DNA of 64,000 bases, taken from positions 80,908 through 144,907 of IMG/VR virus record IMGVR_UViG_3300027708_000026. One strand, written 5' to 3'. This document shows, in pieces, positions 22,901 through 60,543 of the stretch. Origin of the DNA: a virus. A program made the position numbers and the translations under genes. Within the stretch, counting starts at the first letter, position 1; each line of letters opens with the position of its first letter. The notes beneath the pieces are model-generated. The model was not told the origin of the DNA. It made no database searches and saw only the letters and a list, made by a program, of their open reading frames with translations.

Positions 22901-23248
22901 GGGACAACTAATATTTACGGATTAACCATTGAGAAACAGGAAACTTTCGATGACATCGGTCGAAGAATATATACTGCAACAGCCACAGGTGTTGCTGTAC
23001 CGATACCGACAGATTTAGTGACTACTGTTAGGGTTACCTATAAGAATCAGTTTGGTGATATTGTTACTGATAATAGATACTACTCCGGAAGCACTTATCT
23101 CAGCCAATCACAAGCCGCTGCTGCAACACTGGCAGAATTTAAATCCATTAAAAATACAAAAGTTTTAGGCCTAGCCGTGGGTACAAGAAATAATAATACT
23201 AGCAGTACTAATACCAATGGAAAACGCTATACTGCCAACAAGAGCTAA
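19964..23248 (+). CDS. Tube-like baseplate protein (gp48/gp54-like N-terminus) with long helical C-terminal extension
   Basis: The N-terminal ~270 aa (LVKS..LPKF, NQYNRK, YEPV..EFHDDN, LINPKITSW.HD, YENV.Y) resemble a tube fold; the remainder is Ala/Gln/Glu/Lys-rich. Confidence 0.55.
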   Translation: MNQAFNDFLSSVGGGLSGDGGPNMKNYQHASKLYVEGGYARAPKFNHLYFVAFNINDGVVRDRSWLQNGYNTVGLLVKSTSLPKFKITSEQLNQYNRKTQVQTKLTYEPVTMEFHDDNSEITNGLWKNYYRYYYTDSIYGGKDDTVAPTPSQVSLGKKLFGGLLSPGRKRIKARENNIFPDAYTDNKYKKHNYPYGLDNFQTVPFFKSIDIFVLHQQKFTQITLINPKITSWDHDDVGQSDSTKLMRSKMSLVYENVLYNDGRIGKGSKSGVFAEAFYDTSPSPLSIAGKGSKSLFGPGGLIGGVEDVFGENGSLAQGDYLAAALQAATLIKNAGQITEQQLSAEGYSMLGAAVGIAVSSRNGEIAQNLENYFSNGIGVYTNQYSKNNLEDIPTTPNALTPDQYRKFILDQEAAAYAQEVADTRARQAQQERELAQRTNAELDALTEQKNAIGTQISNNLKVAEKALNTINEWNEKIVDPTDTNLLYSSPVYIAARALGDSESVALGKAKADAVTANEGAIAIIESANRQKESVYAINKLLVANQESLTQQAQLIKDYGPDYAAKISRDSLDYIQKYGAVVAQENTLDTSALPNPFLDHEIATKTYLAALNSGRISSVSQAAADLQTSENLVKVERQAAVSQAIGKITENYGNLTLDKAQTNVEIAVLLAEQSRIDGERTELTDRYRAWQVDQTLGNIVEDAKYVGLKNIEDIEKLVIEKALFQKAASNLFTEKKLLQAEYADKVGAYPDTASAREFFLGLAKKYDPTNPDAGLITKQDFIDKYSGASYIDPESGNTYKWTEDQAVLKYYAAGEKAPALYEKAIASFDIAISKVNNTIVLNSFELSNIKGQIGDAYVTLLKSKSATGDEYTNLTTSIENKIIDLGKTQEKITASELLSQRMVIVNTELASAQAVVVKELAYNKNPDKPYVVMVDTRSAEQIQSDSKPAATSESKSFMAKTTISMEVSVQQAILTLQQQLGTTNIYGLTIEKQETFDDIGRRIYTATATGVAVPIPTDLVTTVRVTYKNQFGDIVTDNRYYSGSTYLSQSQAAAATLAEFKSIKNTKVLGLAVGTRNNNTSSTNTNGKRYTANKS

Positions 23249-45235: not shown

Positions 45236-45997
45236 TTATACTATAATTGGGCCATTTTCAGCATTAGTGGGTGCAGCTTGCTGTTGCGGAGGAGTTTGCC
45301 CGACACCCAGTGTAAAGTGTATAAACCTAATGGGTTTGGCAGATGCATGACGACTAAACGAATGTGGTATCCATGAATTGGCAAAAAACAGTAGTCCGGG
45401 TTCCGGCGTAAAGTTGATACTGTTACTGGCATAAGTCACATTGGCCATGTTAGCCTCTGGCAGATTAATCTGCTTTTTAGCAGGTCTCGGATCGTTGATT
45501 ACGACTTTCGAACAATCGGCTGGCGTATCTAGGAAATAAAATCCCACCAACTGCGCTCCAAAACCATGAACATGTTCGTCCATGGCACTATGCCTGTGAT
45601 GTTCTTGACACCACATCTCCATAAAGAATACATTTTTATTGGTCATATCGGAACCCTGAGATTGCAATATATTCCAACCAGTCGCACCTACATAGTTTGC
45701 AAAGTCTGCTATTCTAGGATCGTTGAATAAATTTTCAGTTTGATACAATGGATAAATCGGATCTAATTTTGGCTGTTCTTTTTTTCTTTTGGTCAGCATA
45801 TCCATAGATATAGATTTGACTGTGTGTAGAAATTCAGGCTTTTTAATCGTATATATTGTGCTGGGAAAATACGAAAACACTTCTAACTGATTTTCCGGCT
45901 TAGCTTGGGGCTCCGACGAATTTCCAACAATAGTCGGGTTATCTGATAATTCGATTCCCGAGCTCCCTACAATCACAGGGTTATTTTCTGTATTCAT
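45236..45997 (-). CDS. 2OG-Fe(II) oxygenase-like protein (TIGR02466-like)
   Basis: HVH, G.YFL, DPRP, P.PG.L.F..SW..H, R..I.F. Confidence 0.75.
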   Translation of the reverse strand: MNTENNPVIVGSSGIELSDNPTIVGNSSEPQAKPENQLEVFSYFPSTIYTIKKPEFLHTVKSISMDMLTKRKKEQPKLDPIYPLYQTENLFNDPRIADFANYVGATGWNILQSQGSDMTNKNVFFMEMWCQEHHRHSAMDEHVHGFGAQLVGFYFLDTPADCSKVVINDPRPAKKQINLPEANMANVTYASNSINFTPEPGLLFFANSWIPHSFSRHASAKPIRFIHFTLGVGQTPPQQQAAPTNAENGPIIV

Positions 45998-46005
45998 ATG
46001 TTCCT

Positions 46006-46479
46006 TTAAATTATTAGATCACCGTCTTCATCTACTCGGGGCATCATAGGCCAAGCTACATTAAACGGATCACTAGTATCTAAAGAGTTTAACAAATTTG
46101 AATAAGTTTGCCAAGCATTTTGGACATCTCCGGTAGTATTTTCAATGCGATCAGTTGCAAATAATTTTAATGATTCTAACTGTTCAGCTACTGATTTTTT
46201 CCGTGCTTTTGTAGTAACTCGCTTCTCATCATCATCCATTTCCCTAACGGTCCAGGTATCTTCATATACTCCATCACTGGCTAGTTCATAAGTGCATATA
46301 GGCACTTGAAAATTGCCCACTGGCATGACATCCGGGCCAGGCTGCTGGTGTCTTCGAAATCGTGCGAGGTTGGCGGGTAGATTATTCAAATCTATCCCGG
46401 GCCAGGCTTGTAGTACATTATCCTCCAAAAGTGGATGTTGCCAGGGTTGTCCATCTTGCATTTGTATATATAAGTTCAT
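46006..46479 (-). CDS. Tail-fibre assembly / chaperone-like protein
   Basis: W..Y..LL.....DP.NV.WP C-terminus; downstream of the adhesin cluster. Confidence 0.5.
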   Translation of the reverse strand: MNLYIQMQDGQPWQHPLLEDNVLQAWPGIDLNNLPANLARFRRHQQPGPDVMPVGNFQVPICTYELASDGVYEDTWTVREMDDDEKRVTTKARKKSVAEQLESLKLFATDRIENTTGDVQNAWQTYSNLLNSLDTSDPFNVAWPMMPRVDEDGDLII

Positions 46480-46554
46480 AAATATGATCTCCTTTAATTA
46501 AGTGTATTTAATATTTCACCGGATCCTAGATAAAAGATCTAGGGTCGTTGTATT

Positions 46555-49500
46555 TTAGAGGTTGCTCGAAGGCCCTGTTAGTGTGCTTGGGAAAGTTCGT
46601 ATATTGCCCGGCCAGATGATTCGAACAGCGCCGCCGCCGGCTTGCGCAATCGTGGCCCCGCCGCCGCCTACTATGACTGCATAAGAAGTACCCGGGGATA
46701 CATTATAATTATTCAGGTATCCTAAGCCTCCACCGCCGCCACCAGAACTGGCTCGAGGCCCGTTGGAGCCGCTGCCCCCGCCATAAGCGCCACCCAATCT
46801 GTCGCTGTCCGATGCAGTGGCACCACCTGATCCGCCGCCGCCACCACTGCCAGTACCAGAATAGCTAGAAGTTCCGCCAGCACCGGAACTGCCCTGACCG
46901 TAAACACCAACGCCGCCGCCACCGCCGTGATTGAGCGTATATTTAAAGCCACCACCACCACCAGCTCCACCAGTTCCAGCTGCACCATCAGCAGCATATA
47001 CACCAGAACTATTTGATCCAGTACCACCAGCACCACCGGCGCCGCTATATCCACCAGCGCCACCACCACCACCAGAGCCAGCGCTATTGTTGCCACTACC
47101 ACCGGCACCACCATATCCGCCACCGGTACCTGCATAGTCGCCACCAGCCCCACCGGCGTAACAATATACATATCCAGTACCTCTTCCACCGCCACCACCT
47201 CTAACAAGACTGGAGTTAATAAAGTAACTTTGGGAGCCGCCGGCACCCTGCGTACATCCGGCTGCATCGCCTCCGCCACCACCAACTGCTACTACACTGA
47301 CTGATGTGACATTTGCTGGTGCGATCCAAGAGAATGTGCCAGGAGTAGTATACAAATTCTCCCCGCTAGCAACTAGGGTTGTAACCTGTGTAGTTATACT
47401 GGCAGTACTAATACCGTAGACACTATTAGCATAAACAGATACTGTATATGTAGTTCGGGGAGTTAATCCCAATATTAGTATAATTCCAACCGATGCGGTA
47501 GTTGCACTGATACTAGTGGTGCCAGTCGTTGCCACTGCTGTGTAACTGGTTATAGGAGTAATATAATAAGACGATGGAGGTGCTGTAAAGTTTACAGTAA
47601 TACCCGTGCCGCTAGAAGCCACTGCTGAACTTAGTATAGGTGCTCCTGGTACATATGTGTTACTTATTGTTAATGCGTCAGTATCGTAACCCTGGGCCAC
47701 ATTGGTACTTGGGAATGACCTAACCTGACCGGGCCATACAACACGAACTGCGCCCTTACCACCCGCTGTATTAGTATTGGCACCACCGGCACCTACAACT
47801 ACTGTATAAGAATCTCCTGCTGTGACTGATACGTTGTTTACATAGGCCAACGCGCCGCCGCCACCGCCTGGCATAGATCCGCCACTTATAAAGGATGCAC
47901 CGCCACCTCCCCCAAAGAATCCGCCAAATCCGCCTACATTTGAAACAAATCCATTACCATATCCCCCTATGGTGCCGTTACTTCCGCCAGTACCTGGTCC
48001 GGCAGATGCAACGCCACCAGTGCCGTTACCGCATTTCCCAAACAGTCCGACACCCCCGCCACCCCCGCCTACACCAGGCTGGCCGCGTCCACCACCACCA
48101 CCACCGCCAGTGGAAGCAGCTCCGTCATTACCTGCGCCACCACCACCTGCGCCGCCAGCAGCAGTATATCCACCTGCGCCACCGCCACCGCCACTCTGGC
48201 CGGAACAACCTGCGCCACCGCCACCGCCACCAGAAAACCCCGTACCAGCAATGACTGATCCGCCAGTTTGTCCAGAACCGCCGCCGGCTGATACGTGTAC
48301 AGTATTTGGCAATGCTGCCATCGTAAAACTACTGGCCCCGCCGTTGTTATTATTCCCATCTAATCCGCGCCCTGAACTTCCACCGCCAACGCTTATTACA
48401 CTGACTGCGGTAACATTTGCAGGTACAACCAAAGTATATGTTCCGGGAATCGTATATGCTATACTTGAGCTGGCCACATATGTAGTAGTCGATATACTGT
48501 TGCTGGATGTGCTATTGCCATATACACTAGTAGCATAAACAGATACCGTGTAATTAGTGAGTGGAGTTAATCCCGATATCAATACAGTTCCAGATGATGC
48601 GGTAGTTGTAGTGATACTAGTAGTTCCAGCGGTTGCTACTGCTGTATAACTGGTTATAGGGGTGATATAATAAGGTGATCCTGCTGAGAAATTAATCAAG
48701 ATCGATGTACCATTGGATGCCACTGCTGAATTTAATGTAGGCGGCCTTGGCACATATGTGCTACTTACTGTTAATGCGTCAGTATCGTAACCCTGGGCCA
48801 CATTGGTACTTGGGAATGATCTAAATTGTCCAGGCCATACTATGCGAACTCCTCCGTTACCGCCAGCATGGTCAGGGACTGTGCCGCCAACACCGACAAC
48901 CACTGTATAGGATGCCCCGGGTGTGACTGATATATTATTTGCATAAGCAAGACCGCCACCACCGCCAGCGGCTGCATTATTACCGGGTACATATGACCCG
49001 CCACCGCCACCGCCAAATAATCCACCAAAACCTCCGGTGCCGCTACCAGTGAGATTAAAGTTAGCATATCCGCCAGTAACTCCACAACTTCCGCCTGTAC
49101 CTGGACTTGGTGGCGTGGGCGAATAGACACCGCCCGCGCCGTTACCGCATTTTCCAAAAAGTCCGACACCTCCGCCGCCGCCGCCACCAGAATTTGCACT
49201 AGTAAGGCCACCGCCACCTCCACCACCGCCACCGCCGGTAGAAGCAGCTCCATTAGCACCATGTGCGCCGCCAGTGCCGCCAGCTGCTGTATATCCACCT
49301 GCACCGCCACCACCGCCTTGTTGGGCCGACGACGCCGCTGCCCCGCCAGCGCCGCCAGCAAATCCTGTACCTGCAATGACTGACCCCCCCGTTACTCCAG
49401 AACCACCACTAGCTGATACATGTACTGTATTTGGCAATGCCACCATTGTGAAACTGCTGGCCCCGCCGAGAGCAGTATTATTGCACCTAGACGTGCCCGA

Positions 49501-52065
49501 TGCGCCACCGCCTACTGCTACAACACTAACTGAGGTAACATTTGTGGGCACTACCCAACTATATGTTCCGGGAATTACATATGCTGCGCTGCCGCTGGCT
49601 ACAGCAGTGGTAGTTGATAGACTACTGCTGGATGTGCTATTGCCATATAAATTTGTAGCGTATACAGAGAATGAATAAGAGGTAACCGGAGTTAGTCCCC
49701 TTACGAGGATACTGCCTGACCCAGATGTAGAAGTCGTGCTACGGTAATTTCCATCCGAAGATATTGCAGTATAGCTAGTTATTACATCACCGCCGACATA
49801 AGTAGGTGCTGTATAGGTAATAGCGATCGCAGTGCCACTAGTAGCGGAAATTCCAGTTATCGTAGGTGCATTTGGAACAAATTGACTGCTAGTTGAGTTT
49901 GCGTAACAAACAACTGCTGTCGAAGGGAAAGATCTTATTTGTCCGGGCCATACTATACGTACCCCGCCGTTACCACCGGTACCGCCAACATAAACACCAG
50001 AGGAATCACCTGCGCCGCCCGCACCTACGACTACTGTATAACTTTGGGCCGCATTAACTGTATAGTTATTAACATATGCTAGGCCGCCGCCTGCCCCGCC
50101 TGCACCACTATTGTTTGATCCACTGACAGCACCTCCCCCGCCTCCTCCAAAAACACCACCATACCCTTTTGTTCCTACTTGTCTCCCAGGTGTTCCTCCA
50201 GACCCGCCACCGCCACTTGGATCACACACTGCACCGGTGCTACCGGTAACTCCGTTTGAGCCTAGACCAAACAGTCCAACTCCGCCACCGCCACCTTTTT
50301 CTCCAACAGCATTAATGGCACCGCCAGCACCAGAACCGCCGCAGCCTGCGGCACGGCCAGCACCGCCACCTGTACCAGTATAGCCGCCAGCACCGCCACC
50401 CCGAGCGCTGGCGTCTGCGCCGCCAGTGCCACCTGCAAATGCCACGGCGGTATTGCCTGTTCCTGATCTACCAGTACCACCGGTACCGCCTGTATAATTT
50501 GAAGTTCCTGGAAGACCGCCATATGCACGGACAACACATGTGGCTGCAAAATAACTCGAGCCGCCTGCGACGCCTGCATAACAACTTCCATTGACACTAT
50601 TGCCAAAAGTGCCACCTCCACCACCACCTACAGTGACTACACTGACTGAGGTAACTCCGGCAGGTGTAACCCAACTGTAAGTCCCGGGGAATTTATATAT
50701 ATTCGAACCCGGAGATGCATAGGTTGTGATAACAGACGATGTACTACTAACATCACCATCGCCTACGAGATTTGTTCCATATGCCTGGAATGTATAAGAA
50801 GTTAACGGACTTAAATTTGATGCAGTTACTGAGACATATACATCAAACGGTTGAACAGTACTAGTAGTCGCACCGCTAACTGTGACGCTACGTGCATAGT
50901 AACTGTTGTCTACTATGCTAGTGGCATTTTGTAAAGTTAACATAGTCACTGTGGTTGCCGAGATGATAGCACTGATGTTAGTGCTGTTAGTTTGTGTAGT
51001 TGACAACGGTGCAGTTGGTGGAGTAAAAGCGCCTGTATAAACTGCTAGATATCTAGCAATGCGTAGATTGCTTATATAACCATTGAACCAAGTCGTATTA
51101 TATCCAGGGTTTTCAGTACCGATGTACAAATATTGTTCGTACATGTCATTCGAATATGTTCCGGATACGGCACTGGTGCCATTTACATATAATGTAACTG
51201 TTGATCCGACGCGGACAGCAGCCACGTGATACCAAGCATTAGCAGCATATGTATTAGCAGATACCATGACCCCAGGCGAACTTTGCCCTGATGATGAGTA
51301 AAAAAATTCAAACTTACTGGCCACAGCTCTACCATAAGAAATCTTCATGCCGTGATCGCCACCGAGATTTTGTGTCCAGTTGCCCAGCATCGATCCGTTG
51401 GTGGTGGCAAGAGGATACACCCACATTTCAATGGTAAAATCTGTAGTGCCAACTAGGGGATTTGGGGTGGTTGAGAATGAAAGATAGGAGCTGCTGCCAT
51501 TGAAATATCCAGAGTAACTGGTAGTGGGCAGCGTGGTAGTGGTGCCTGCTAGTGCGCCATTGGCTAATACTGAATACGAGTATGCTGGAATGACACTGGT
51601 ACCGGGTAGAAACCTGACCAAAGCCGACGGCGTCGATGTGACATTAGTCGAAGTTATTATGGCCGATATCGATGTTGGTGCTGTAGGTACCGCATAACTG
51701 GATAACATGATAGGGGACGAGTATGTACCATAGACAACATTGCTGGCAGTACTGAGTAAACTGTTACCGGCAAAGTTGGTGGCATACATGTTGAACACAT
51801 AATATGTACTCGAGCTCAATCCTGGGATGACGACGGTGTTAGTGCTTACAGATACTGTGGCGGTAAATCCTGCAGGATTGCTGACTGCTGTATAAGTTAA
51901 TATAGGACCGCTGCCCGAATAATTTGGCGCAGTAAATTTCAAACTAACTGTGTTAGTGGCCGTAGTAGTCCACGTTGCAGTTAATGCCGTAGGAGCATCG
52001 GGCACATAGTTGGCCGTGAACCGCACAAATCCTGTTATTTTGACGCCGCCTTGAATTATTGTCAT
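46555..52065 (-). CDS. Giant FN3/LamG/Gly-rich adhesin-like protein (1836 aa; four Gly-rich modules)
   Basis: Repeated units FN3 + PG(T/S)YSW..P..VTSVSVV.VGGG ... VRI(V/I)WPG..R.FPST; one LamG domain. Confidence 0.75.
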   Translation of the reverse strand: MTIIQGGVKITGFVRFTANYVPDAPTALTATWTTTATNTVSLKFTAPNYSGSGPILTYTAVSNPAGFTATVSVSTNTVVIPGLSSSTYYVFNMYATNFAGNSLLSTASNVVYGTYSSPIMLSSYAVPTAPTSISAIITSTNVTSTPSALVRFLPGTSVIPAYSYSVLANGALAGTTTTLPTTSYSGYFNGSSSYLSFSTTPNPLVGTTDFTIEMWVYPLATTNGSMLGNWTQNLGGDHGMKISYGRAVASKFEFFYSSSGQSSPGVMVSANTYAANAWYHVAAVRVGSTVTLYVNGTSAVSGTYSNDMYEQYLYIGTENPGYNTTWFNGYISNLRIARYLAVYTGAFTPPTAPLSTTQTNSTNISAIISATTVTMLTLQNATSIVDNSYYARSVTVSGATTSTVQPFDVYVSVTASNLSPLTSYTFQAYGTNLVGDGDVSSTSSVITTYASPGSNIYKFPGTYSWVTPAGVTSVSVVTVGGGGGGTFGNSVNGSCYAGVAGGSSYFAATCVVRAYGGLPGTSNYTGGTGGTGRSGTGNTAVAFAGGTGGADASARGGGAGGYTGTGGGAGRAAGCGGSGAGGAINAVGEKGGGGGVGLFGLGSNGVTGSTGAVCDPSGGGGSGGTPGRQVGTKGYGGVFGGGGGGAVSGSNNSGAGGAGGGLAYVNNYTVNAAQSYTVVVGAGGAGDSSGVYVGGTGGNGGVRIVWPGQIRSFPSTAVVCYANSTSSQFVPNAPTITGISATSGTAIAITYTAPTYVGGDVITSYTAISSDGNYRSTTSTSGSGSILVRGLTPVTSYSFSVYATNLYGNSTSSSSLSTTTAVASGSAAYVIPGTYSWVVPTNVTSVSVVAVGGGASGTSRCNNTALGGASSFTMVALPNTVHVSASGGSGVTGGSVIAGTGFAGGAGGAAASSAQQGGGGGAGGYTAAGGTGGAHGANGAASTGGGGGGGGGGLTSANSGGGGGGGVGLFGKCGNGAGGVYSPTPPSPGTGGSCGVTGGYANFNLTGSGTGGFGGLFGGGGGGSYVPGNNAAAGGGGGLAYANNISVTPGASYTVVVGVGGTVPDHAGGNGGVRIVWPGQFRSFPSTNVAQGYDTDALTVSSTYVPRPPTLNSAVASNGTSILINFSAGSPYYITPITSYTAVATAGTTSITTTTASSGTVLISGLTPLTNYTVSVYATSVYGNSTSSNSISTTTYVASSSIAYTIPGTYTLVVPANVTAVSVISVGGGSSGRGLDGNNNNGGASSFTMAALPNTVHVSAGGGSGQTGGSVIAGTGFSGGGGGGAGCSGQSGGGGGAGGYTAAGGAGGGGAGNDGAASTGGGGGGGRGQPGVGGGGGGVGLFGKCGNGTGGVASAGPGTGGSNGTIGGYGNGFVSNVGGFGGFFGGGGGASFISGGSMPGGGGGALAYVNNVSVTAGDSYTVVVGAGGANTNTAGGKGAVRVVWPGQVRSFPSTNVAQGYDTDALTISNTYVPGAPILSSAVASSGTGITVNFTAPPSSYYITPITSYTAVATTGTTSISATTASVGIILILGLTPRTTYTVSVYANSVYGISTASITTQVTTLVASGENLYTTPGTFSWIAPANVTSVSVVAVGGGGGDAAGCTQGAGGSQSYFINSSLVRGGGGGRGTGYVYCYAGGAGGDYAGTGGGYGGAGGSGNNSAGSGGGGGAGGYSGAGGAGGTGSNSSGVYAADGAAGTGGAGGGGGFKYTLNHGGGGGVGVYGQGSSGAGGTSSYSGTGSGGGGGSGGATASDSDRLGGAYGGGSGSNGPRASSGGGGGGLGYLNNYNVSPGTSYAVIVGGGGATIAQAGGGAVRIIWPGNIRTFPSTLTGPSSNL
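47668..48819. repeat. Direct repeat from a tandem module duplication (period 1101 bp)
   Basis: TGTTAATGCGTCAGTATCGTAACCCTGGGCCACATTGGTACTTGGGAATGA is identical at 47668 and 48769; SSFTM.ALPNTVHVSA is also duplicated. Confidence 0.85.
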
Positions 52066-52099
52066 TTGCTTTATTTATTAGTTGATAAATCTCTAATTT

Positions 52100-55087
52100 C
52101 TAATTGAATAGTATTGTCCCTGACGCAGTGAATATGTAGTTTCTATAGCCACCTTCTACAACATAAGTAGCGGTATTTACAACTGCCGGATTAAATGAAG
52201 TTGGATAACGGAGGATCGCTATGCCAGATCCGCCAGCAGTACCGACCGATGAACCGCCTGCACTACCGCCCCCTCCGCCGCCCCCTCCGCCAGAATACTG
52301 TTTCGCCGCAGTTCCAAGATCAGTTGTAAATGCTCCATTGCCGCCTCCGCCAAATCCACCTATACCGGTGGCGGTGCCGCCACCACCTGCACCGCCACCT
52401 GCAAAATAAACTGCATTAGTGGCAGTAATGTATTGTCCCACACCTAATGTTAACGCCAGTGTTGTAGAAATTATAGTAGTAAATGTTCCAGTACCTCCAT
52501 TGCCTGGAACACCGGAATTGTGATTAGCACCAACGCCGCCAGCGCCACCACCGCCTCCACCAGATGAGCTAGTGTTGTTAGTGTAGCTAGAACCTGCACC
52601 GCCAGCAAATCCAACTCCGTAACCGTATGTGGCGAATTGCGTGCTAGTTCCGCCGACAGTATTATTGGAAGCGCCACCACCACCAGAACCGCCTGGAAGA
52701 CCGTTAAAGCTAGGAGACCAGCCTCCACCTCCGCCGCCGCCCACTGCTGCTCTCGTAACGGCACCTCCGATAAACGATGAAGTAGAACCAGCGTTCCCAG
52801 CTATAGTCGATGCCGATGCCGCAGCACCAGCACCAATTATAACTGAGTATAACACACCAGAAGATATAGTCTGACTACTGACGTAGACGAGACCGCCAGC
52901 GCCACCACCGCCTCCTCTTCCATGAGTGCTCGTTCCACCTCCACCTCCACCACCTCCGCCCACCAACAGAATTTCTATGGGAGGCATTGTGTTAAAAATT
53001 GTACTAGTAGATCCTACACTATCACCTAAAATACTAGTTGAATATATAGTCGCTGTGCTAGGCACTGATATACCAGGGAAAGTTAATATAGCACTACCCA
53101 AAGTGGTGTAAGCTGATGCTGAAATTCCGCCTGCTTGGCCAGTGAACAGGTAAGACTTAATTCCAGTTTGTGTAAATGCATCTTGAACATATGCGATCCC
53201 AGTCCATGTGTTATTTGAAAAATATGCTGTTGATGATGTAACTACTGGATAAGGGAAATTTGTATAGGCAGTAGTCGTTGTCAATGCTGAACAGGCTGCA
53301 ACCAATGTGCTGGGAAACTGTCTATCACTAGCTGGCCACACGATACGAACTGCACCGCCTCCACCTATTGAATTTGCACTACCACTTGGTGTGGGTGCCG
53401 CCCCTACGATAACTGTATATGATAGATTATATACCACTGTGACAGTGTTGGCATATACTAATGAACCACCGGCACCACCACCGCCTGCGCTGCCACCCCC
53501 ACCACCGCCGTATACTCCCCCGCCACCATATGTTCCCGCGGAGACTGTGCTAGTGCCCGCAGAGCCGCAAGATCCACTGCCTCCACCAATGCCAGAACTT
53601 CCACTGGTAGTGCCACCGGCACCACTGGCACCTAGACCAAAGATTCCTGTGCCACCCCCACCTGCTCCCAGACTACCGGTATACCCACCGCCACCGCCGC
53701 CGCCACCGAAGCCGTTAGTACCAGAGCTACATCTACCACCAATGCCGCTGCCAGGATATGTGCCCAATGTAGTAGTTACCGAACCGACATTAGTGATGGC
53801 TAGACTTCCACCATTGTCTACTATGGTAGCATTTTGCAGAGTTAGAAACGCAGTGGTAGCTGATGATGCAATAGCAGAGATATTAGTACTGGAAGATTGT
53901 GTAGTTGCTAACGGTAACACTGGCGGAACAAAGTTACCTGTATATACAGCTTGTCTAACCACACGAAGATTGGACATAGACCCTACTAATTTATAAGGAT
54001 CAAATGTTTGTCCTATATTCATAAGAGTTCTAGTGAAGTTTGTGGCATCGGCAAATTGCAATCTATTGATACCATTGATGTATATATTTAGGTTGCCAGC
54101 AGTTCTAACTACTGCCACATGATGCCACACACCAATGACCATGCTGGCATTGCTAGAAATAGTGCTACTGACGCTGCCGATCCTAACGATAAAGGTACCA
54201 GCGTTAAAGTAAACTCCAAAGCCAGCAGTATCACTTCCAGTAGTCCTAATATCAAACATGCCGGGGAATGAATTAGTGGTAAACGATCCAGGATTTACCC
54301 ACCATTCCACAGTAAAATCAGCGGTGCCTAAAGCAGATGGCAATGTTGCTTGTAATGCTTGACTACCACTTAGACTTGCGTAGTATAAAGAATTACCAAC
54401 ATAGCCGCCCGCACCGCCACCGCCGCCACCTGCGCTACTTGCGCAATTGGCTGCAACCCCGCCAGCATTACCACCATATACGACCACTGAGTTAGCTTGC
54501 CCTGTTCCGCCCTGACTATATCCTGGGAAATTAACAGTACCTGCACTATATCCGCTCCTGCCGCCCAGCGCCGAAGCTACACTGCCACTGACAAATGTAC
54601 TAGTTCCGCCAAAGCTGTTGTCTACTACCGTACCAGCACTGGATTTTCCTGACCCCCCTGCTCCAATGGCCACCACGCTGACTGATGTTACATTAGGATT
54701 GGCATTGATCCAGCTGTAGGTTCCTGGCACCGTATACGCTTGACTACCATAAGTATATGGCAATACAATAGGTGTCAATGTCTCTGTGCCCGGGCCAACT
54801 TCTGAATTAGCATATACTGAAAATCTATAGAAAGTTCCTGAACTCAATCCGCTGACTGTTATCGTTCCTGTACCGCTAGTGTTGAGTGAACCGGTGATGA
54901 GACCTGGATAGCTAACAGCTGTCACTGAAGTAACTGTGAAACTACCTCGATTAGTTGGACCTGTAAATAAGATAGTGGCTGTATTTAGAGTGGTCATCGT
55001 TGCTGATGTTATGACAACTGGACCCGGTGCCGACAATGAAGTCATAATAATACCACCAGAAAAATTGACACCGCCACTAATTATCAT
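52100..55087 (-). CDS. FN3/Gly-rich/LamG adhesin-like protein (probable start MIISGG at 55087)
   Basis: The ATG lies 1 nt after the upstream stop, and its N-terminus matches the paralogues; LamG and two Gly-rich module types. Confidence 0.75.
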   Translation of the reverse strand: MIISGGVNFSGGIIMTSLSAPGPVVITSATMTTLNTATILFTGPTNRGSFTVTSVTAVSYPGLITGSLNTSGTGTITVSGLSSGTFYRFSVYANSEVGPGTETLTPIVLPYTYGSQAYTVPGTYSWINANPNVTSVSVVAIGAGGSGKSSAGTVVDNSFGGTSTFVSGSVASALGGRSGYSAGTVNFPGYSQGGTGQANSVVVYGGNAGGVAANCASSAGGGGGGAGGYVGNSLYYASLSGSQALQATLPSALGTADFTVEWWVNPGSFTTNSFPGMFDIRTTGSDTAGFGVYFNAGTFIVRIGSVSSTISSNASMVIGVWHHVAVVRTAGNLNIYINGINRLQFADATNFTRTLMNIGQTFDPYKLVGSMSNLRVVRQAVYTGNFVPPVLPLATTQSSSTNISAIASSATTAFLTLQNATIVDNGGSLAITNVGSVTTTLGTYPGSGIGGRCSSGTNGFGGGGGGGGYTGSLGAGGGGTGIFGLGASGAGGTTSGSSGIGGGSGSCGSAGTSTVSAGTYGGGGVYGGGGGGSAGGGGAGGSLVYANTVTVVYNLSYTVIVGAAPTPSGSANSIGGGGAVRIVWPASDRQFPSTLVAACSALTTTTAYTNFPYPVVTSSTAYFSNNTWTGIAYVQDAFTQTGIKSYLFTGQAGGISASAYTTLGSAILTFPGISVPSTATIYSTSILGDSVGSTSTIFNTMPPIEILLVGGGGGGGGGTSTHGRGGGGGAGGLVYVSSQTISSGVLYSVIIGAGAAASASTIAGNAGSTSSFIGGAVTRAAVGGGGGGGWSPSFNGLPGGSGGGGASNNTVGGTSTQFATYGYGVGFAGGAGSSYTNNTSSSGGGGGGAGGVGANHNSGVPGNGGTGTFTTIISTTLALTLGVGQYITATNAVYFAGGGAGGGGTATGIGGFGGGGNGAFTTDLGTAAKQYSGGGGGGGGGSAGGSSVGTAGGSGIAILRYPTSFNPAVVNTATYVVEGGYRNYIFTASGTILFN

Positions 55088-55088
55088 A

Positions 55089-58000
55089 TTAAAACGCTCC
55101 TGAAACGTTAGTACTAGGGAATGATCTAGTTGCACCGGACCAAACAATTCGAACCGCGCCAACCCCGCCCGGTGATTGTGGACAGTTTCCAGTTGCCCCG
55201 CCGGCGCCAACGATTACGGTATAGCTAGCGCCCGGAGTAACTGATACATTATTAGCATACGCCAGTGCTCCTGCTCCACCGCCCGCCATCGCACCACCAC
55301 CAATAACTGAGGCTCCTGTACCGCCACCATATGTGCCACCTTTACCACCAGTTCCACTAGTTTGTGCGCCACCTGCACTACCGCCAGATCCACCACCACC
55401 ACCACCTGTGCCGTTACAGCCCAGTCCATATAATCCAACGCCGCCGCCGCCCATACCTGTACCATTGCCGCCGCCGCCGCCGCCGCCAGTTGATGCAGCA
55501 CCAGCAGCGCCGCCGCCAAAGCCGCCAACTCCGCCAGCAGCGGTATATCCGCCTGCTCCGCCACCACCACCTTGTTGGCAACCATTGCCGCCGCCACCTG
55601 CACCGCCAGCAAATCCAGTACCAACACCAACGGTTCCGCCAGCGCCTCCAGTAGCACCATAACTACCGCCAGCACCGCCACCTGCAGATACATAGGTCGT
55701 GCTTGGCGATGTTAATGCGAAGCTACTGGCGCCACCGGATACTTGAGCAGCACACTTCATACGACCAGTTCCACCACCACCAACAGCTACTACACTGACT
55801 GATGTAACTCCCAATGGTGCGACCCAAGAGAAGGTGCCAGTGTTTATATATAGAGCATTGCCCCAAGGTGTACCAGTGCTTACTGCGCTGCCCGGGCCTT
55901 GACCTGCGGCATTGGAAGCATACGCTACAAAACTATAGGCAACGCCTGAAGTCAATCCTGATACAGTTACTACATTGCCTGATACAGTGGTTCCTGAGAA
56001 GCTGCCGGGACTTGCAATCACAGTATATCCGGTTATAGACAACCCACCGGTATTGACAGGGGCTGTTACAGCAACACTTACTGTAGAACTGCTGGTGCCA
56101 GTTATGGCAGCTATCGTAGGACTACCTGGAACGCCATTTGTAGTGATCGACAAGGTGTTAGTTGATGTCGTAGTTCCTGCTAGATTAGTAGCATATCCCG
56201 TGACAGTATACGTGGTATTATTAGTCAATCCACTGATGTATACGGTGCCTGTCAGCAGCCCATTAACTACTGATACAGTACCACTGGAGTTTCCAGGTGT
56301 AGTCACTGCTGTAAATTGATACGTGGGCAGTATTGCCGATGTTGATCCAGTATTGGAAACAGACACCGCTATCGTACCTAAACTGAAATTAGTCACTGTA
56401 GTCACAGTGACAAAAGCAGGCGGACTATATCCACTGGCTAGTTTAGGAGTAGTACATGCAACTGTGACATTGGTACTGGGGAAACTCCTCGTTGTTCCAG
56501 GCCAAACAATTCGAACTGCTCCACTGCCACCTAAACCACCAGAGCAACTGCTGCCCTTTGTGCCCCTAGCACCCACTACCACAGCATAGCAGGAATTAGG
56601 AGTCACTGCGATGTTATTACCATAAGCTAATGCACCGCCACTACCACCGCCGTGTCCGCAACCGCCGTTTGCACCGGCGCCGCCGCCGCCACCATATGCA
56701 CCACCAGCACCGCCTACACCAGAAACTGTGCTGGTTCCGCCAGCTACCCCACAGGAGCCACCACCACCGCCTACCGCGTTGCCTGCTGCCCAAGTGCCGC
56801 CAGCGCCGTTAGAACCTTGTCCAAATAGTCCAACTCCGCCGCCGCCGCCAGAATATTGACCTGATGCGCCGCCACCTCCGCCAGCTCCACCAGTGCCAGC
56901 ACTACCTGTACTGGCGTTCCACGCACCACCGCCACCACCATTGCCCGAATAGCCGCCAGCACCGCCGCCTGCGCCACCGTTGGCTCCGTTACAGGCAATG
57001 CCGCCCGCCCCGCCGGTGCCACCACCGGTTCTAGCTGTTCCTGAGCCAGTCCCACCTCCTATATACCCACCGGCATTGGAACCACGAAATCCGCCGCCAC
57101 CACCCGAAGCCTGGAGTGTACCAGACGCTGCAAAATAACTTGCGCCGCCTTGGCCGCCCGATGCGCCGCCTCCACCTCCGCCGCCTACAGCTACCACGCT
57201 GACGCTGCTGACTGTGGCAGGTGCTTTCCAAGTATAGCTACCCGGTGTAGTATAACTGGCTTCAGTGACTGCCTGGGAACCAAATGGGAATGTCACAGTG
57301 CTGGCAGTACTGATAGTACCGGTGCCAAGTGAATTAGTGGCATAGACTTGGAATGTATAGTAAGTGCTACTGTCCACAGTCATGACAATGGGACTTGCAG
57401 ATGCAGATTGTGTCTGCCCAAATGGTGTTGCAATCACCGTATAGGACGTTATAGGTGTGAATCCTGGATATATAGGAGTAGTCCATGCCACTGAAATAGT
57501 TCCTGTACTGGTAGCAGAGGTTATCACAGCAGTGGGTGCAGATGGGACTGCACTGATGCTGGTACCGCAATTACCCACATTGGTACTGGGGAAACTTCTT
57601 GCTGCGCCGGGCCATACGATACGAACTATTCCCCCACCTCCTATCGATGTTGTTAATGAACCAAAAGTGATGGTGCCGGAACCAACCGTCGTCCAGATAT
57701 ATGTCCTATATCCGCCCGAAACTGTAATAGTTGGATTACCTGTAGTGCTTGTTGCTGGTAGATAGATATCTGGATAACGGATGACTACTATACCTGAACC
57801 GCCATTACCACCTAATACGGTGCCGCTGGATTGAGAACTTCCTCCACCACCGCCACCAGTGTTTGGTGTTGCATTTCCTCCATTGGTATTAGTAACTAAT
57901 GCGCCATTGCCGCCGCCCCCTGTGCCTCCCAACCCACCTGTTGCGCCCGTCCTACCACCGGCACCACCACCACCTGCGTAGTATGTTGCTGTTCCAGTGA

Positions 58001-60383
58001 TGCTAGATTGTATTCCAATACCGCCTGCGCCCGCAACAGAACCAGAACCGGCGGCGCCAACGGCTCCTGCTCCACCACCACCGCCACCCGGAAACGGAGT
58101 GCTATTGACACCAGCCCCGCCGTTATTGCCTTGACTGGGGCTAGTGCTTGGTGTGTTACCCGCACCACCACCGCCGGTGCTTAAATAATTTCCGCCTCCA
58201 CCAGAGCCTCCCGAGCCGGCGGTGCCGGCAGAAGAGGCACCACCACCGCCACCACCACCAGTTGCAGTTATTGATGCAAACACAGAATCGAGACCGTTTG
58301 CACCTGTTCCTGACCCACCCGTAGCGCCTGCGCCGACTGTGACTGTGTATGCCACTCCGGTAGATACTGCATAACTGGATGAAGAAAGATAACCACCGGC
58401 ACCACCGCCACCTTGACCGCCACCGTTTGTTGTTCCACCACCGGCACCACCACCGCCAACCACTAGATATTCTACGGTAGGTGGTGGCAACATAACACCG
58501 CCAGCGCCCACAGTGACCGCATAACAGTTGCCCGCAATCACTGGATAGTTGTTGATATAGGCCAATCCGCCACCGCCACCACTTGCACCAGCAGCAGCCC
58601 CGCCACCGCCAGGATATCCGCCATTGGAACCGCAGCCACATGCGCCACCGCTGCCGCCGTAGCCATAATAATGTCCACCTGGAGAATTTGCACCCGGCGC
58701 ACCGTTCGTGCCCTGTCCAAATATTCCCGTACCACCACCACCGCCATAATTAGTACCGTCGAAAGTTCCGCCGCCCCCGCCGCCAGATATTGATGTAGTG
58801 GTGGATGTGTTTAGGACCAGCGAGAAATTTATTGTCCCCGATGCTGTGAATATATATGTCCTAAATCCACCTGACGCAACATATGTAGCACTGGTTATTG
58901 CCGCCGCAAATGTATCTGGATAACGCACGATCACTACCCCGGAACCACCGTTACCGCCAATGTTGTAACCACCGCCAGTAGTGGACCTACCAGCACCACC
59001 GCCGCCACCTGTGTATGGTGTGCCGGAAAAACCAGTGGCATTTGCACTATTACCCGCTGCGCCACCTCCGTAGCCACCCAAGGACTGCGCACAGTTGGAT
59101 ACGCCAGAACCGCCACCACCAAAATAAACACTGTTTGTGGCAGTGATATACTGACCAACTGCCAATGTTATGGCCAATGAAGTACTTATGATAGTGGTTG
59201 CAGTGCCAACACCACCAGCACCGCCGGGCGACGATGCACCATTAGCACCAACGCCTCCAGCACCGCCACCACCAGCACCTGCATATCCAGGCGCTGTATT
59301 AAGTCCGCTGCCGCCCGCAAATCCAAAACATGCACCCGTTTTGGCGCCGGGGCTGCTGCCATTATTGGCTGCACCGCCGCCGCTGCCGCCGCTGCCCCCG
59401 GCTCGGACAGTGGTTGCAACTCCAGTCCAACCACCACCATAGCCGCCGCCCAGGGCAGTCAATCCAAATGCCACAGAATCTTGACCGTTTGATCCACCTG
59501 TGGCATTGCCCGAGCCGCCTTGGCCAACAGTGATACCATAAACTGTAGCACTCACTGCCGCAGATCCTAGGCGCACACCACCGGCACCGCCACCGCCAGC
59601 GTTGTCAGTACAGGCTTTGCTGGTGCCGCCAGATCCGCCGCCAGCCACTATGAGATATTCAACTGTGGTGGGGAGACTAGATGCACCCACCATGGGATAG
59701 CCGCTGCCACCCACAGTGCCGTAGCCACCAGCACCGCCAGCACCTGACAGTGTATTGCCGCCAGCACCACCAGCGCCTACCACAAATCCTGTATAGCCAG
59801 TGCCCGTGCCGCCCGCACCCCCGCCAGCCACATCGTTGAGGTTGTAACCACCCGCACCCCCAAAAGCAGCCAAAGCACCTGTGTTGATGAATGTACTGGT
59901 ACCACCTGATGGCGCACGAGTTCCCGCAGTTACTGGCATGCCACCACCGCCACCACCTATGGCCAGGACACTGACTGAAGTGACTCCTGTGGGAGCCCGC
60001 CAGGTATAACTGCCCGGCGAGGTGTATGTGGTGCTGCTGTTGGCCACCAGTGTGGTGACGGCCACACTGGTACTGGCCGCGCTGGTGCCTGCATCAGTGA
60101 TGGCTGCTATGGAGATGTTATAGCCAGTGAATGTGCTCAGTCCCACTACTGTGATGCCAGTGGCTGTGATGGATGATATCACACCACCCACAGGCGATGT
60201 TGACACCGTGTAGCCCGTGATGGGCAAGCCACTGGTAGCGGTATTGGCAGTGTAGGTGACCAGCACAGTGGTCTGCCCAGTGGCCACAATGCTGTTGATA
60301 GTGGGCGCACCGGGAGGATAGATGTTGTTGGTAACTACAGTGGCGCCACTGAACACAACTCCACCTGTCATTACAATTCCCAT
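55089..60383 (-). CDS. Giant FN3/Gly-rich adhesin-like protein (1764 aa)
   Basis: FN3 repeats, three VRIVW-type and two VEYL...IRYP-type Gly-rich modules; TATAAATA at 60413-60420. Confidence 0.75.
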   Translation of the reverse strand: MGIVMTGGVVFSGATVVTNNIYPPGAPTINSIVATGQTTVLVTYTANTATSGLPITGYTVSTSPVGGVISSITATGITVVGLSTFTGYNISIAAITDAGTSAASTSVAVTTLVANSSTTYTSPGSYTWRAPTGVTSVSVLAIGGGGGGMPVTAGTRAPSGGTSTFINTGALAAFGGAGGYNLNDVAGGGAGGTGTGYTGFVVGAGGAGGNTLSGAGGAGGYGTVGGSGYPMVGASSLPTTVEYLIVAGGGSGGTSKACTDNAGGGGAGGVRLGSAAVSATVYGITVGQGGSGNATGGSNGQDSVAFGLTALGGGYGGGWTGVATTVRAGGSGGSGGGAANNGSSPGAKTGACFGFAGGSGLNTAPGYAGAGGGGAGGVGANGASSPGGAGGVGTATTIISTSLAITLAVGQYITATNSVYFGGGGSGVSNCAQSLGGYGGGAAGNSANATGFSGTPYTGGGGGAGRSTTGGGYNIGGNGGSGVVIVRYPDTFAAAITSATYVASGGFRTYIFTASGTINFSLVLNTSTTTSISGGGGGGTFDGTNYGGGGGTGIFGQGTNGAPGANSPGGHYYGYGGSGGACGCGSNGGYPGGGGAAAGASGGGGGLAYINNYPVIAGNCYAVTVGAGGVMLPPPTVEYLVVGGGGAGGGTTNGGGQGGGGAGGYLSSSSYAVSTGVAYTVTVGAGATGGSGTGANGLDSVFASITATGGGGGGGASSAGTAGSGGSGGGGNYLSTGGGGAGNTPSTSPSQGNNGGAGVNSTPFPGGGGGGAGAVGAAGSGSVAGAGGIGIQSSITGTATYYAGGGGAGGRTGATGGLGGTGGGGNGALVTNTNGGNATPNTGGGGGGSSQSSGTVLGGNGGSGIVVIRYPDIYLPATSTTGNPTITVSGGYRTYIWTTVGSGTITFGSLTTSIGGGGIVRIVWPGAARSFPSTNVGNCGTSISAVPSAPTAVITSATSTGTISVAWTTPIYPGFTPITSYTVIATPFGQTQSASASPIVMTVDSSTYYTFQVYATNSLGTGTISTASTVTFPFGSQAVTEASYTTPGSYTWKAPATVSSVSVVAVGGGGGGGASGGQGGASYFAASGTLQASGGGGGFRGSNAGGYIGGGTGSGTARTGGGTGGAGGIACNGANGGAGGGAGGYSGNGGGGGAWNASTGSAGTGGAGGGGGASGQYSGGGGGVGLFGQGSNGAGGTWAAGNAVGGGGGSCGVAGGTSTVSGVGGAGGAYGGGGGAGANGGCGHGGGSGGALAYGNNIAVTPNSCYAVVVGARGTKGSSCSGGLGGSGAVRIVWPGTTRSFPSTNVTVACTTPKLASGYSPPAFVTVTTVTNFSLGTIAVSVSNTGSTSAILPTYQFTAVTTPGNSSGTVSVVNGLLTGTVYISGLTNNTTYTVTGYATNLAGTTTSTNTLSITTNGVPGSPTIAAITGTSSSTVSVAVTAPVNTGGLSITGYTVIASPGSFSGTTVSGNVVTVSGLTSGVAYSFVAYASNAAGQGPGSAVSTGTPWGNALYINTGTFSWVAPLGVTSVSVVAVGGGGTGRMKCAAQVSGGASSFALTSPSTTYVSAGGGAGGSYGATGGAGGTVGVGTGFAGGAGGGGNGCQQGGGGGAGGYTAAGGVGGFGGGAAGAASTGGGGGGGNGTGMGGGGVGLYGLGCNGTGGGGGGSGGSAGGAQTSGTGGKGGTYGGGTGASVIGGGAMAGGGAGALAYANNVSVTPGASYTVIVGAGGATGNCPQSPGGVGAVRIVWSGATRSFPSTNVSGAF

Positions 60384-60543
60384 AAGCTAGCTGATTCCCT
60401 GTAAGTATATGATATTTATACATATAGAACACTAGCGAATTAAATTTTTTTAAGCGATAGGGCGAGTCAAGAGCAGCCCCCAGCAGAGCGCGAAGCGCAG
60501 AAAATTGTCAGCGACTTTTTTTTGATTATTAAATACATACATA

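Follow-up and report, generated by a model that had tools for sequence, protein, structure and literature searches.

The locus considered here raises the question of whether one glycine-rich domain can hold two others inside it. In a 64,000-nt stretch of viral DNA (the window in what follows, numbered from its first base; bases 80908-144907, at the end of the 144,907-bp linear IMG/VR record IMGVR_UViG_3300027708_000026), the minus-strand gene P0001 encodes a fibre-like protein of 1764 amino acids (aa) that contains glycine-rich modules of two kinds, type A and type B. A preliminary description of this DNA had claimed that the first type-A module of the protein (copy 1) is broken twice by complete type-B modules, here called B1 and B2. 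The nesting is confirmed at the level of sequence, and we put at roughly three in four the probability that copy 1 is a type-A host domain with two nested type-B passengers in a fibre adhesin resembling that of cyanophage Pam3.

Type-A modules, taken in the consensus of that description, are without a Pfam family and match phrog_4474, which has no assigned function; the phrog_4474 hidden Markov model (HMM) scores 226.6 bits in six stretches of the paralogous protein P0003, 33.1 bits in P0001, and 36.3 bits in P0124. Type-B modules belong to Pfam PF21722 (Gly_rich_2), which P0001 matches in two stretches at 108.5 bits (cut-off 24.3), the best covering aa 636-870 on positions 16-225 of the 226-position profile, and the nearest Atlas clusters are also PF21722 (score 0.95). 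B1, B2, and a third module, B3, match phrog_2295 as well and align with one another end to end at 51-52% identity. The window holds nine type-A and three type-B modules in total. Intact type-A modules number four in P0003 and two in P0001, and a further one forms the C-terminus of P0124; the six intact copies of P0003 and P0001 are 52-57% identical to the first of them and share 80 invariant columns. To locate parts of modules we used anchors, i.e., short HMMs free of glycine runs, written N, F, H, and C for type A and bN, bH, bC, and bT for type B. The layout of P0001 is as follows:

55089-60383, minus strand: gene P0001, 1764-aa fibre-like protein, in the order FN3; type-A copy 1 with nested B1 and B2; FN3; copy 2; FN3 repeats; copy 3
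60033-60383, minus strand: aa 1-117, N-terminal motif (M..I..GGV..G) and FN3, 43% identical to the N-terminus of the homologue P0130
59673-60032, minus strand: type-A copy 1, fragment 1, aa 118-237, N strands and early glycine lattice through GGAGGY plus 16 aa (HMM columns 1 to ~113; N anchor 40.0 bits)
58824-59672, minus strand: nested B1, aa 238-520, matching PF21722/phrog_2295, with all four type-B anchors (bN, bH, bC, bT)
58485-58823, minus strand: Ser/Thr-rich return linker and type-A fragment 2, aa 521-633, remaining lattice and the LAY.NN...Y.V.VGAGG hairpin (HMM columns ~114-234; F anchor 13.2 bits, H anchor 33.0 bits)
57663-58484(87), minus strand: nested B2, aa 634-907, matching PF21722 on profile positions 16-225 of 226
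57564-57662, minus strand: type-A fragment 3, aa 908-940, return linker and last strand GGGGIVRIVWPG..RSFPST (HMM columns 235-264; C anchor 38.6 bits)
56460-57260, minus strand: intact type-A copy 2, aa 1042-1308, modelled with AlphaFold2 (AF2)
55098-55856, minus strand: intact type-A copy 3, aa 1510-1762

The nested order can be followed motif by motif. Copy 1 opens with PGSYTW (aa 123), VTSVSV (aa 134), and a homologous GGAGGY (aa 216), and these are followed by the B1 motifs VEYLIV (aa 241), VRYP (aa 486), and GTINF (aa 516-520). Type-A motifs then resume with LAYINN (aa 607) and YAVTVG (aa 621), B2 follows with VEYLVV (aa 637), IRYP (aa 868), and GTITF (aa 903-907), and the closing type-A motifs VRIVW and FPST stand at aa 920 and 931. 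The anchors fall in the same succession, with N119 bN238 bH262 bC476 bT500 H602 bN634 bH658 bC858 bT885 C915 preceding two plain N-H-C modules. Copy 1 is 812 aa long, and subtraction of inserts of 280 and 271 aa leaves 261 aa, compared with 244-258 aa in the six intact copies.

Ordinary alignment is of no use on sequences of such glycine-rich composition. Searches with hmmsearch, hmmalign, and BLASTP of the intact copies against aa 1-1000 were uninformative, as glycine composition aligns all of them and hmmalign opens no 280-aa inserts, and for this reason we relied on splice scans and on the non-glycine anchors. Computational splices of copy 1 were scored against a type-A HMM built from the six intact copies. 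Unspliced copy 1 scored 44.5 bits over HMM columns 2-210, which rose to 102.8 bits (columns 2-232) when B1 was removed, to 79.3 bits (columns 69-264) when B2 was removed, and to 145-149 bits (columns 2-264) when both were removed. Two hundred random double deletions of equal sizes averaged 79.1 bits (standard deviation 33.9), and the five best of them (143-147 bits) all start at aa 230-263 and 629-642, i.e., on or near the observed sites. A grid scan had its optimum at the removal of aa ~230-238 to 518-530 and 633-639 to 908-911.

The spliced host keeps 72 of the 80 invariant columns and 28 of 31 non-glycine invariant residues, which compares with 71/80 and 27/31 in the uninterrupted module of P0124 and with 69/80 and 26/31 in that of P0130. 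Its fragments are collinear and complementary, and together they make up one complete type-A sequence. Motif order, splice scores, and anchors agree on the double interruption that had been claimed; the fragments align collinearly with the intact copies, and the coordinates given for the inserts were right to within 1 nt.

A model of the intact copy 2 indicates what kind of fold is interrupted. With a 56-row alignment of intact type-A modules as input, AF2 gave a predicted local distance difference test score (pLDDT) of 92.3 and a predicted template modelling score (pTM) of 0.92. Strands were placed at residues 7-12, 19-25, 41-44, 49-51, 79-81, 211-218, 224-229, and 248-252, while residues 85-205 form a long, confident stretch nearly without secondary structure, apart from isolated strand marks of 1-2 residues. 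When the model was compared with 48,161 PDB representatives using VIA-align, the best match was the Pam3 fibre gp24 (7ypx_A; Z 10.5, root-mean-square deviation 2.6 A over 143 residues, 33% identity), and a tail-tip chain of mycobacteriophage Bxb1 (9d93_Qa) reached Z 7.4; the next unrelated rows score about Z 4-5. For S16 gp38 (6f45_D), 56 residues of the glycine block (model residues 95-196) aligned at Z 3.6, and ALK (7nx3) matched at Z 3.5. Foldseek returned nothing from the PDB at E<=0.001, its top weak rows being the same fibre entries and the LTK TG domain (ALK/LTK at rank 5). A search of BFVD gave 19 matches at E<=1e-3, mostly phage proteins named "glycine-rich domain-containing". In sequence searches of the PDB, neither the type-A profiles (at E<=1 or E<=10) nor B2 (at E<=1) matched any chain, and gp38 was among those unmatched. 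On the basis of the model, type A is predicted to fold like the tip of the Pam3 tail fibre, with a small tumour necrosis factor (TNF)-like beta-sandwich and a projecting lattice of extended glycine-rich motifs. The comparison with T-even gp38 made in the preliminary description was thus right in kind, with a local alignment of the glycine block, but Pam3 gp24 is much the closer relative.

The two insertion sites can be placed on this model. B1 stands after HMM column ~110-113, in the turn that matches AWNASTGSAGT of copy 2 (model residues ~113-121), one glycine motif after GGAGGY, and B2 stands after column 234, in the loop between the last two sandwich strands (model residues 231-247). Insertions and deletions (indels) of intact type-A modules cluster between the conserved glycine runs. 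Measured against the modelled copy, natural inserts among the 56 intact sequences are longest at two sites, namely the B1 turn (up to 16 aa after residue 118, in 24 sequences) and the B2 loop (up to 21 aa after residue 237, in 22 sequences). The passengers are complete, and both of their sites are natural indel hot spots.

The neighbouring gene P0002 offers a second interrupted type-A module, the passenger in this case being a LamG domain:

52100-55087 (listed as 52100-55210), minus strand: gene P0002, encoding FN3, a type-A module split by LamG, and a C-terminal free-standing type-B module (B3)
53291-54742, minus strand: type-A module of P0002 hosting LamG
53747-54388, minus strand: LamG passenger of P0002, aa ~275-488 (Pfam Laminin_G_3 at aa 282-421), directly after GGAGGY-VGN
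52103-52987, minus strand: B3, C-terminal type-B module of P0002

The listed TTG start of P0002 (55210) is probably too far upstream. Since the database protein P0255 (995 aa) equals P0002 residues 42-1036 and begins at ATG 55087, that ATG is the probable start; it lies immediately after the P0001 stop codon (55089-55091).

From the position of LamG it had been suggested that the region after GGAGGY is an insertion hotspot. The two passengers do lie in roughly the same region, but LamG occupies the turn before that of B1, about 12 residues earlier, a turn without indels in intact homologues. A single hotspot common to LamG and B1 was accordingly rejected. Because LamG, B1, and the passengers of homologues are found at different turns, we favour several permissive turns over one hotspot.

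The survey of homologues proposed with the preliminary description turned up other passengers, at other turns. The type-A profile matches 3515 proteins of a representative protein library at E<=1e-3 and 110 at E<=1e-30. Among database proteins, 99 modules of type-A order are intact and three are expanded, namely those of P0274 (LamG after GGGGVGIYG, HMM column ~150), P0265 (a longer LamG-like passenger after GGAGGY), and P0129 (184-aa passenger ahead of GGAGGY, matching SPRY below threshold at E 0.01). P0274 and P0265 keep the layout of P0002 (FN3, type-A with LamG, C-terminal type-B) but carry LamG at different lattice turns, which implies independent insertions or relocation. PF21722-type modules also accept passengers: 13 of the 129 that are bounded by anchors exceed 330 aa, and LamG lies between the anchors in P0021, P0091, P0070, P0015, and P0055. 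In P0120, a complete type-B module (aa 161-449) sits within another type-B module (aa 55-159 and 449-606), the outer one scoring 157.9 bits when spliced versus 117.1 bits for the best unspliced match. P0005 (aa 777-1544) resembles P0120 in its nesting; both are metagenomic and otherwise unrelated proteins.

Three homologues with a P0001-like N-terminus and layout (P0130, P0281, and P0282) have an uninterrupted first type-A module at aa ~121-362, with no type-B module behind it. As these same-layout proteins have an intact first module, the double nesting appears to be a derived state. Among the database proteins surveyed, P0001 alone carries a type-B module within a type-A module, or two passengers in one host. 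No close relative was found in IMG/VR, where 76 loci matched, nearly all of them in the B2 part only, or in the JGI metagenomes, which gave one weak locus.

The relationship between host and passenger was examined through the order of the anchors, which divides 293 collected proteins into two classes. In type-A order, N is followed by ~200 glycine-rich residues, the hairpin, and C about 10 residues on, whereas in type-B-like order N is followed by the hairpin after ~40 residues, then ~170 glycine-rich residues, and C. The glycine block thus precedes the hairpin in type A and follows it in type B. In type-B-order modules, the entire glycine block sits on the connection that corresponds to the B2 loop of copy 1, and PF21722 gives sub-threshold local matches on type-A modules at profile positions 23-94. 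We infer that type A and type B probably belong to one superfamily, which has a common sandwich but bears the glycine block on different connections of it. The type-B tail bT (...GGYR.Y.FT.SGTI.F) is present in 31 of 89 modules without an N-terminal beta0 strand versus 0 of 222 modules with beta0, and 17 of 57 such tails lie at a protein C-terminus (two of them in P0002 of the window and its duplicate P0255). This distribution is consistent with a permuted arrangement that joins the type-B termini, without proving one.

The wider setting bears on what such a protein may do. Judging from its genes, the record (CheckV completeness 41%) is a jumbo myovirus. PHROG matches to baseplate wedge, minor tail, tail-fibre, tail sheath, and large terminase proteins mark a contractile-tailed phage, and others in the window are to a UvsX-like recombinase, helicases, and primase. 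Between the sheath protein and its counterparts in the jumbo phages Phosso and PA5oct, identity is 42-46%, and a megablast search against phage records gave no DNA-level match. P0001, P0002, and P0003 are three large minus-strand genes arranged head to tail, and further features relevant to them are:

46555-52065, minus strand: P0003, third paralogous gene, 1836 aa, with FN3, LamG, and four intact type-A modules separated by FN3
46006-46479, minus strand: 157-aa open reading frame (ORF) directly downstream of the three fibre genes, with a sub-threshold Caudo_TAP match
45236-45997, minus strand: 2OG-Fe(II) oxygenase ORF (PF13759, phrog_81)
3362-4144, plus strand: intact type-A module of P0124 (gene 2165-4147), C-terminal in a protein with four FN3 domains, in a baseplate/tail-fibre gene cluster

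The P0124 gene lies between a baseplate-wedge-like gene and a gene for a 1958-aa tail fibre (4176-10052, plus strand), which ends in a Peptidase_S74 intramolecular chaperone domain. Type-A heads thus occur in two separate fibre loci of this phage. An N-terminal motif of ~25 aa, M.I..GG(V/A)...G......NY.P.AP, precedes the first FN3 in the products of all three minus-strand genes (starting at 60383, 55087, and 52065) as well as in P0130 and P0275, and it may be a virion-attachment peptide.

We read the proteins as fibres or adhesins because of their fold relatives, their FN3 spacers, the type-A module in the tail-fibre cluster, and the possible tail-fibre assembly (TFA)-like ORF. On this reading, the three adjacent genes would encode fibre-like adhesins in which FN3 spacers carry two related kinds of glycine-rich heads. 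In copy 1, the host fragments 118-237, 521-633, and 908-940 would reunite into one fold that displays both passengers, and three glycine-rich binding heads would thereby be brought into a compact cluster. The proteins would act as virion fibres that bind receptors on the host surface, and nesting would be a way of adding or swapping binding modules with the scaffold undisturbed, so as to multiply and diversify the heads.

Several points weigh against this reading. A single-sequence AF2 run on aa 115-945 reached a pLDDT of 30.3 and is uninformative on the nested module. When the nested query was aligned with MAFFT (auto and E-INS-i), B2 was bridged correctly, but 30-120 residues per type-A homologue were spread onto B1. 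Glycine-rich composition inflates all pairwise scores, so that the evidence rests on the non-glycine anchors and the controls. Support for homology between type A and type B is local, consisting, besides anchor order, of an hhalign match to the hairpin region only (A 199-236 versus B 23-60; 38 columns, probability 41%). The Caudo_TAP match (a tail-fibre assembly protein family) is below the Pfam cut-off (21.8 bits versus 22.1; E 2.2e-4) and covers the last 27 residues of the ORF only. The same double nesting was found in 0 of the 102 type-A-order database modules and in none of the IMG/VR or JGI metagenome sequences, and because no orthologue with the same arrangement was found, no case can be made for its conservation. 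The placement of the proteins on the virion, their oligomeric state, and their binding of receptors are inferred.

Three other explanations have to be weighed. The best of them, to which we give a slim chance, is that the type-A fragments no longer form a domain and persist, flanking two functional type-B heads, as linkers rich in glycine or as decayed remains. The single-sequence AF2 run gives no three-dimensional support for reunited fragments, and copy 1 is somewhat more divergent than the rest (mean identity 0.45 to the intact copies versus 0.52 among them). However, the non-glycine invariants that it keeps, in a number similar to the uninterrupted modules, take in the hairpin and the VRIVWPG..RSFPST tail as well as the strand motifs, and its spliced length equals that of intact copies.

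Slightly less probable still is that there was no insertion, and that copy 1 is the remnant of a tandem A-B-A-B-A array after in-register deletion or recombination, with the parts of three type-A copies summing to one. These proteins are indeed highly repetitive, with their many type-A and type-B modules, and recombination between module ends that are 63-78% identical (families D8 and D10) is conceivable. Such a history would nevertheless need several precisely matched break points, as the fragments are exactly complementary (1 to ~113, ~114-234, and 235-264), with neither overlap nor loss. Moreover, the three same-layout homologues have one intact module at this place and no type-B module behind it, and unrelated proteins repeatedly show nested passengers (LamG, SPRY-like, or type-B). 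The nested topology of the final protein is in any case identical whatever its history. Lastly, a chimeric metagenome assembly across repeated glycine-rich modules, which might come to mind for a metagenome-derived IMG/VR contig with a repeat-rich region, is very improbable, since the junctions and their surroundings have no near-identical DNA repeats (modules share at best 70-78% DNA identity, over 67 nt, which is not enough to confuse an assembler), the 5.3-kb frame contains no interruption, nesting of this kind is also found in independent database proteins, and an identical 1764-aa protein is in the Atlas, though this may come from the same sample.

Returning to the nested adhesin, both domain insertion and the fold itself are already known, and the arrangement in P0001 suggests that turns of this fold can carry whole extra domains. 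Glycine-rich lattice tips such as those of gp38 and Pam3 gp24 are host-range determinants, and the short loops between their motifs are thought to contact the receptor. In siphophages, "evolved" Dit and Tal proteins have carbohydrate-binding modules inserted into a loop of a structural host domain; an extra binding domain likewise occupies a loop here, but the host fold is another one, the passenger is probably of the same superfamily as its host, and there are two passengers per host.

Among individual systems, Pam3 gp24 (7YPX/7YFW) is the one most like type A, both consisting of a small beta-sandwich and a lattice of extended glycine-rich motifs; the likeness is a structural one, seen in the model, with no sequence-level match to any PDB chain. 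The Pam3 report divides gp24 into a helical shaft, a sandwich of the TNF-like type, and a glycine-rich domain in which 12 glycine-rich motifs form a four-layer lattice (PMC9608196). It proposes that the less conserved distal tips of the lattice bind the receptor, states that gp24 needs the TFA-like chaperone gp25, and notes a resemblance to the ectodomain of ALK/LTK (the TG region) (PMC9608196). The gene for gp25 follows that for gp24, and a fibre chaperone encoded by the possible TFA-like ORF downstream of the fibre genes (46006-46479) would be a parallel. Unlike gp24, the modules described here are borne on FN3 repeats, several per protein, without an N-terminal helical docking domain, and gp24 carries no nested folded domain such as those of copy 1.

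The T-even and S16 gp38 adhesins (6F45) appear to share with type A a glycine-rich core and variable segments between motifs, and the match is weak, partial, and local. In gp38, hypervariable segments separate conserved glycine-rich motifs (PMC3157838). These segments are short loops, whereas at such positions we find whole domains of 214-283 aa, and the gp37-attachment and beta-helix domains of gp38 mentioned in PMC9608196 were not found here. The TG ectodomain of ALK/LTK (7NX3, 7NX1) also combines a TNF-like sandwich with a polyglycine lattice, but the scores are weak, and this eukaryotic receptor carries no nested passengers. Among the PF21722/phrog_2295 proteins of phages and candidate phyla radiation (CPR) bacteria, B1, B2, and B3 are members above the gathering cut-off, while the type-A host falls outside PF21722, having sub-threshold local matches and its glycine block on the other side of the hairpin.

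A wider proposal, which we regard as possible but doubtful, is that the TNF-like sandwich with its polyglycine lattice is a display scaffold, the turns of which accept whole domains such as LamG and SPRY-like ones and even, recursively, the same fold. Type-B would be an effectively circularly permuted drop-in cassette, and large phages would evolve host range by nesting together with tip swapping. In such a cassette, the first type-B strand would adjoin the last strands (bT, equivalent to beta0 of type A), which would make the module insertable into a loop. There are hints that the cassette moves with its linker, in that the hosts of B1, B2, and the inner P0120 module resume after a similar Ser/Thr-rich linker ending in TSI(S); the resemblance of the P0120 linker (..TSTSTSIS) to those after B1 and B2 was judged by eye. 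A general return-linker motif following type-B tails was looked for and rejected, as it was present in 2 of 57 tails, both of P0001.

If copy 1 is indeed a host with two passengers, many large "glycine-rich domain" proteins that stand unannotated in phages and CPR bacteria could be read as host plus passenger rather than as disordered repeats. Permissive grafting sites in this fold would already have been mapped by nature, which would help in understanding how receptor-binding modules are combined and in testing such combinations in laboratory phages. In the full-text literature, a search whose scope leaves out most subscription-journal papers, no description was found of passengers nested in a polyglycine lattice, of a passenger of the same superfamily as its host, or of two passengers in one host.

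A few further observations concern the window as a whole. The 2OG-Fe(II) oxygenase ORF is, with the 157-aa ORF, one of two that lie directly downstream of the glycine-rich fibre genes. A 1094-aa ORF (19964-23248, plus strand) is matched by tail-tube PHROGs over aa 40-137 only, the other ~950 residues being without a Pfam or PHROG match. Finally, G+C content is 49-58% in the fibre genes (46000-60400) compared with 37-48% over bases 1-46000, and the raised value fits their load of GGN glycine codons.

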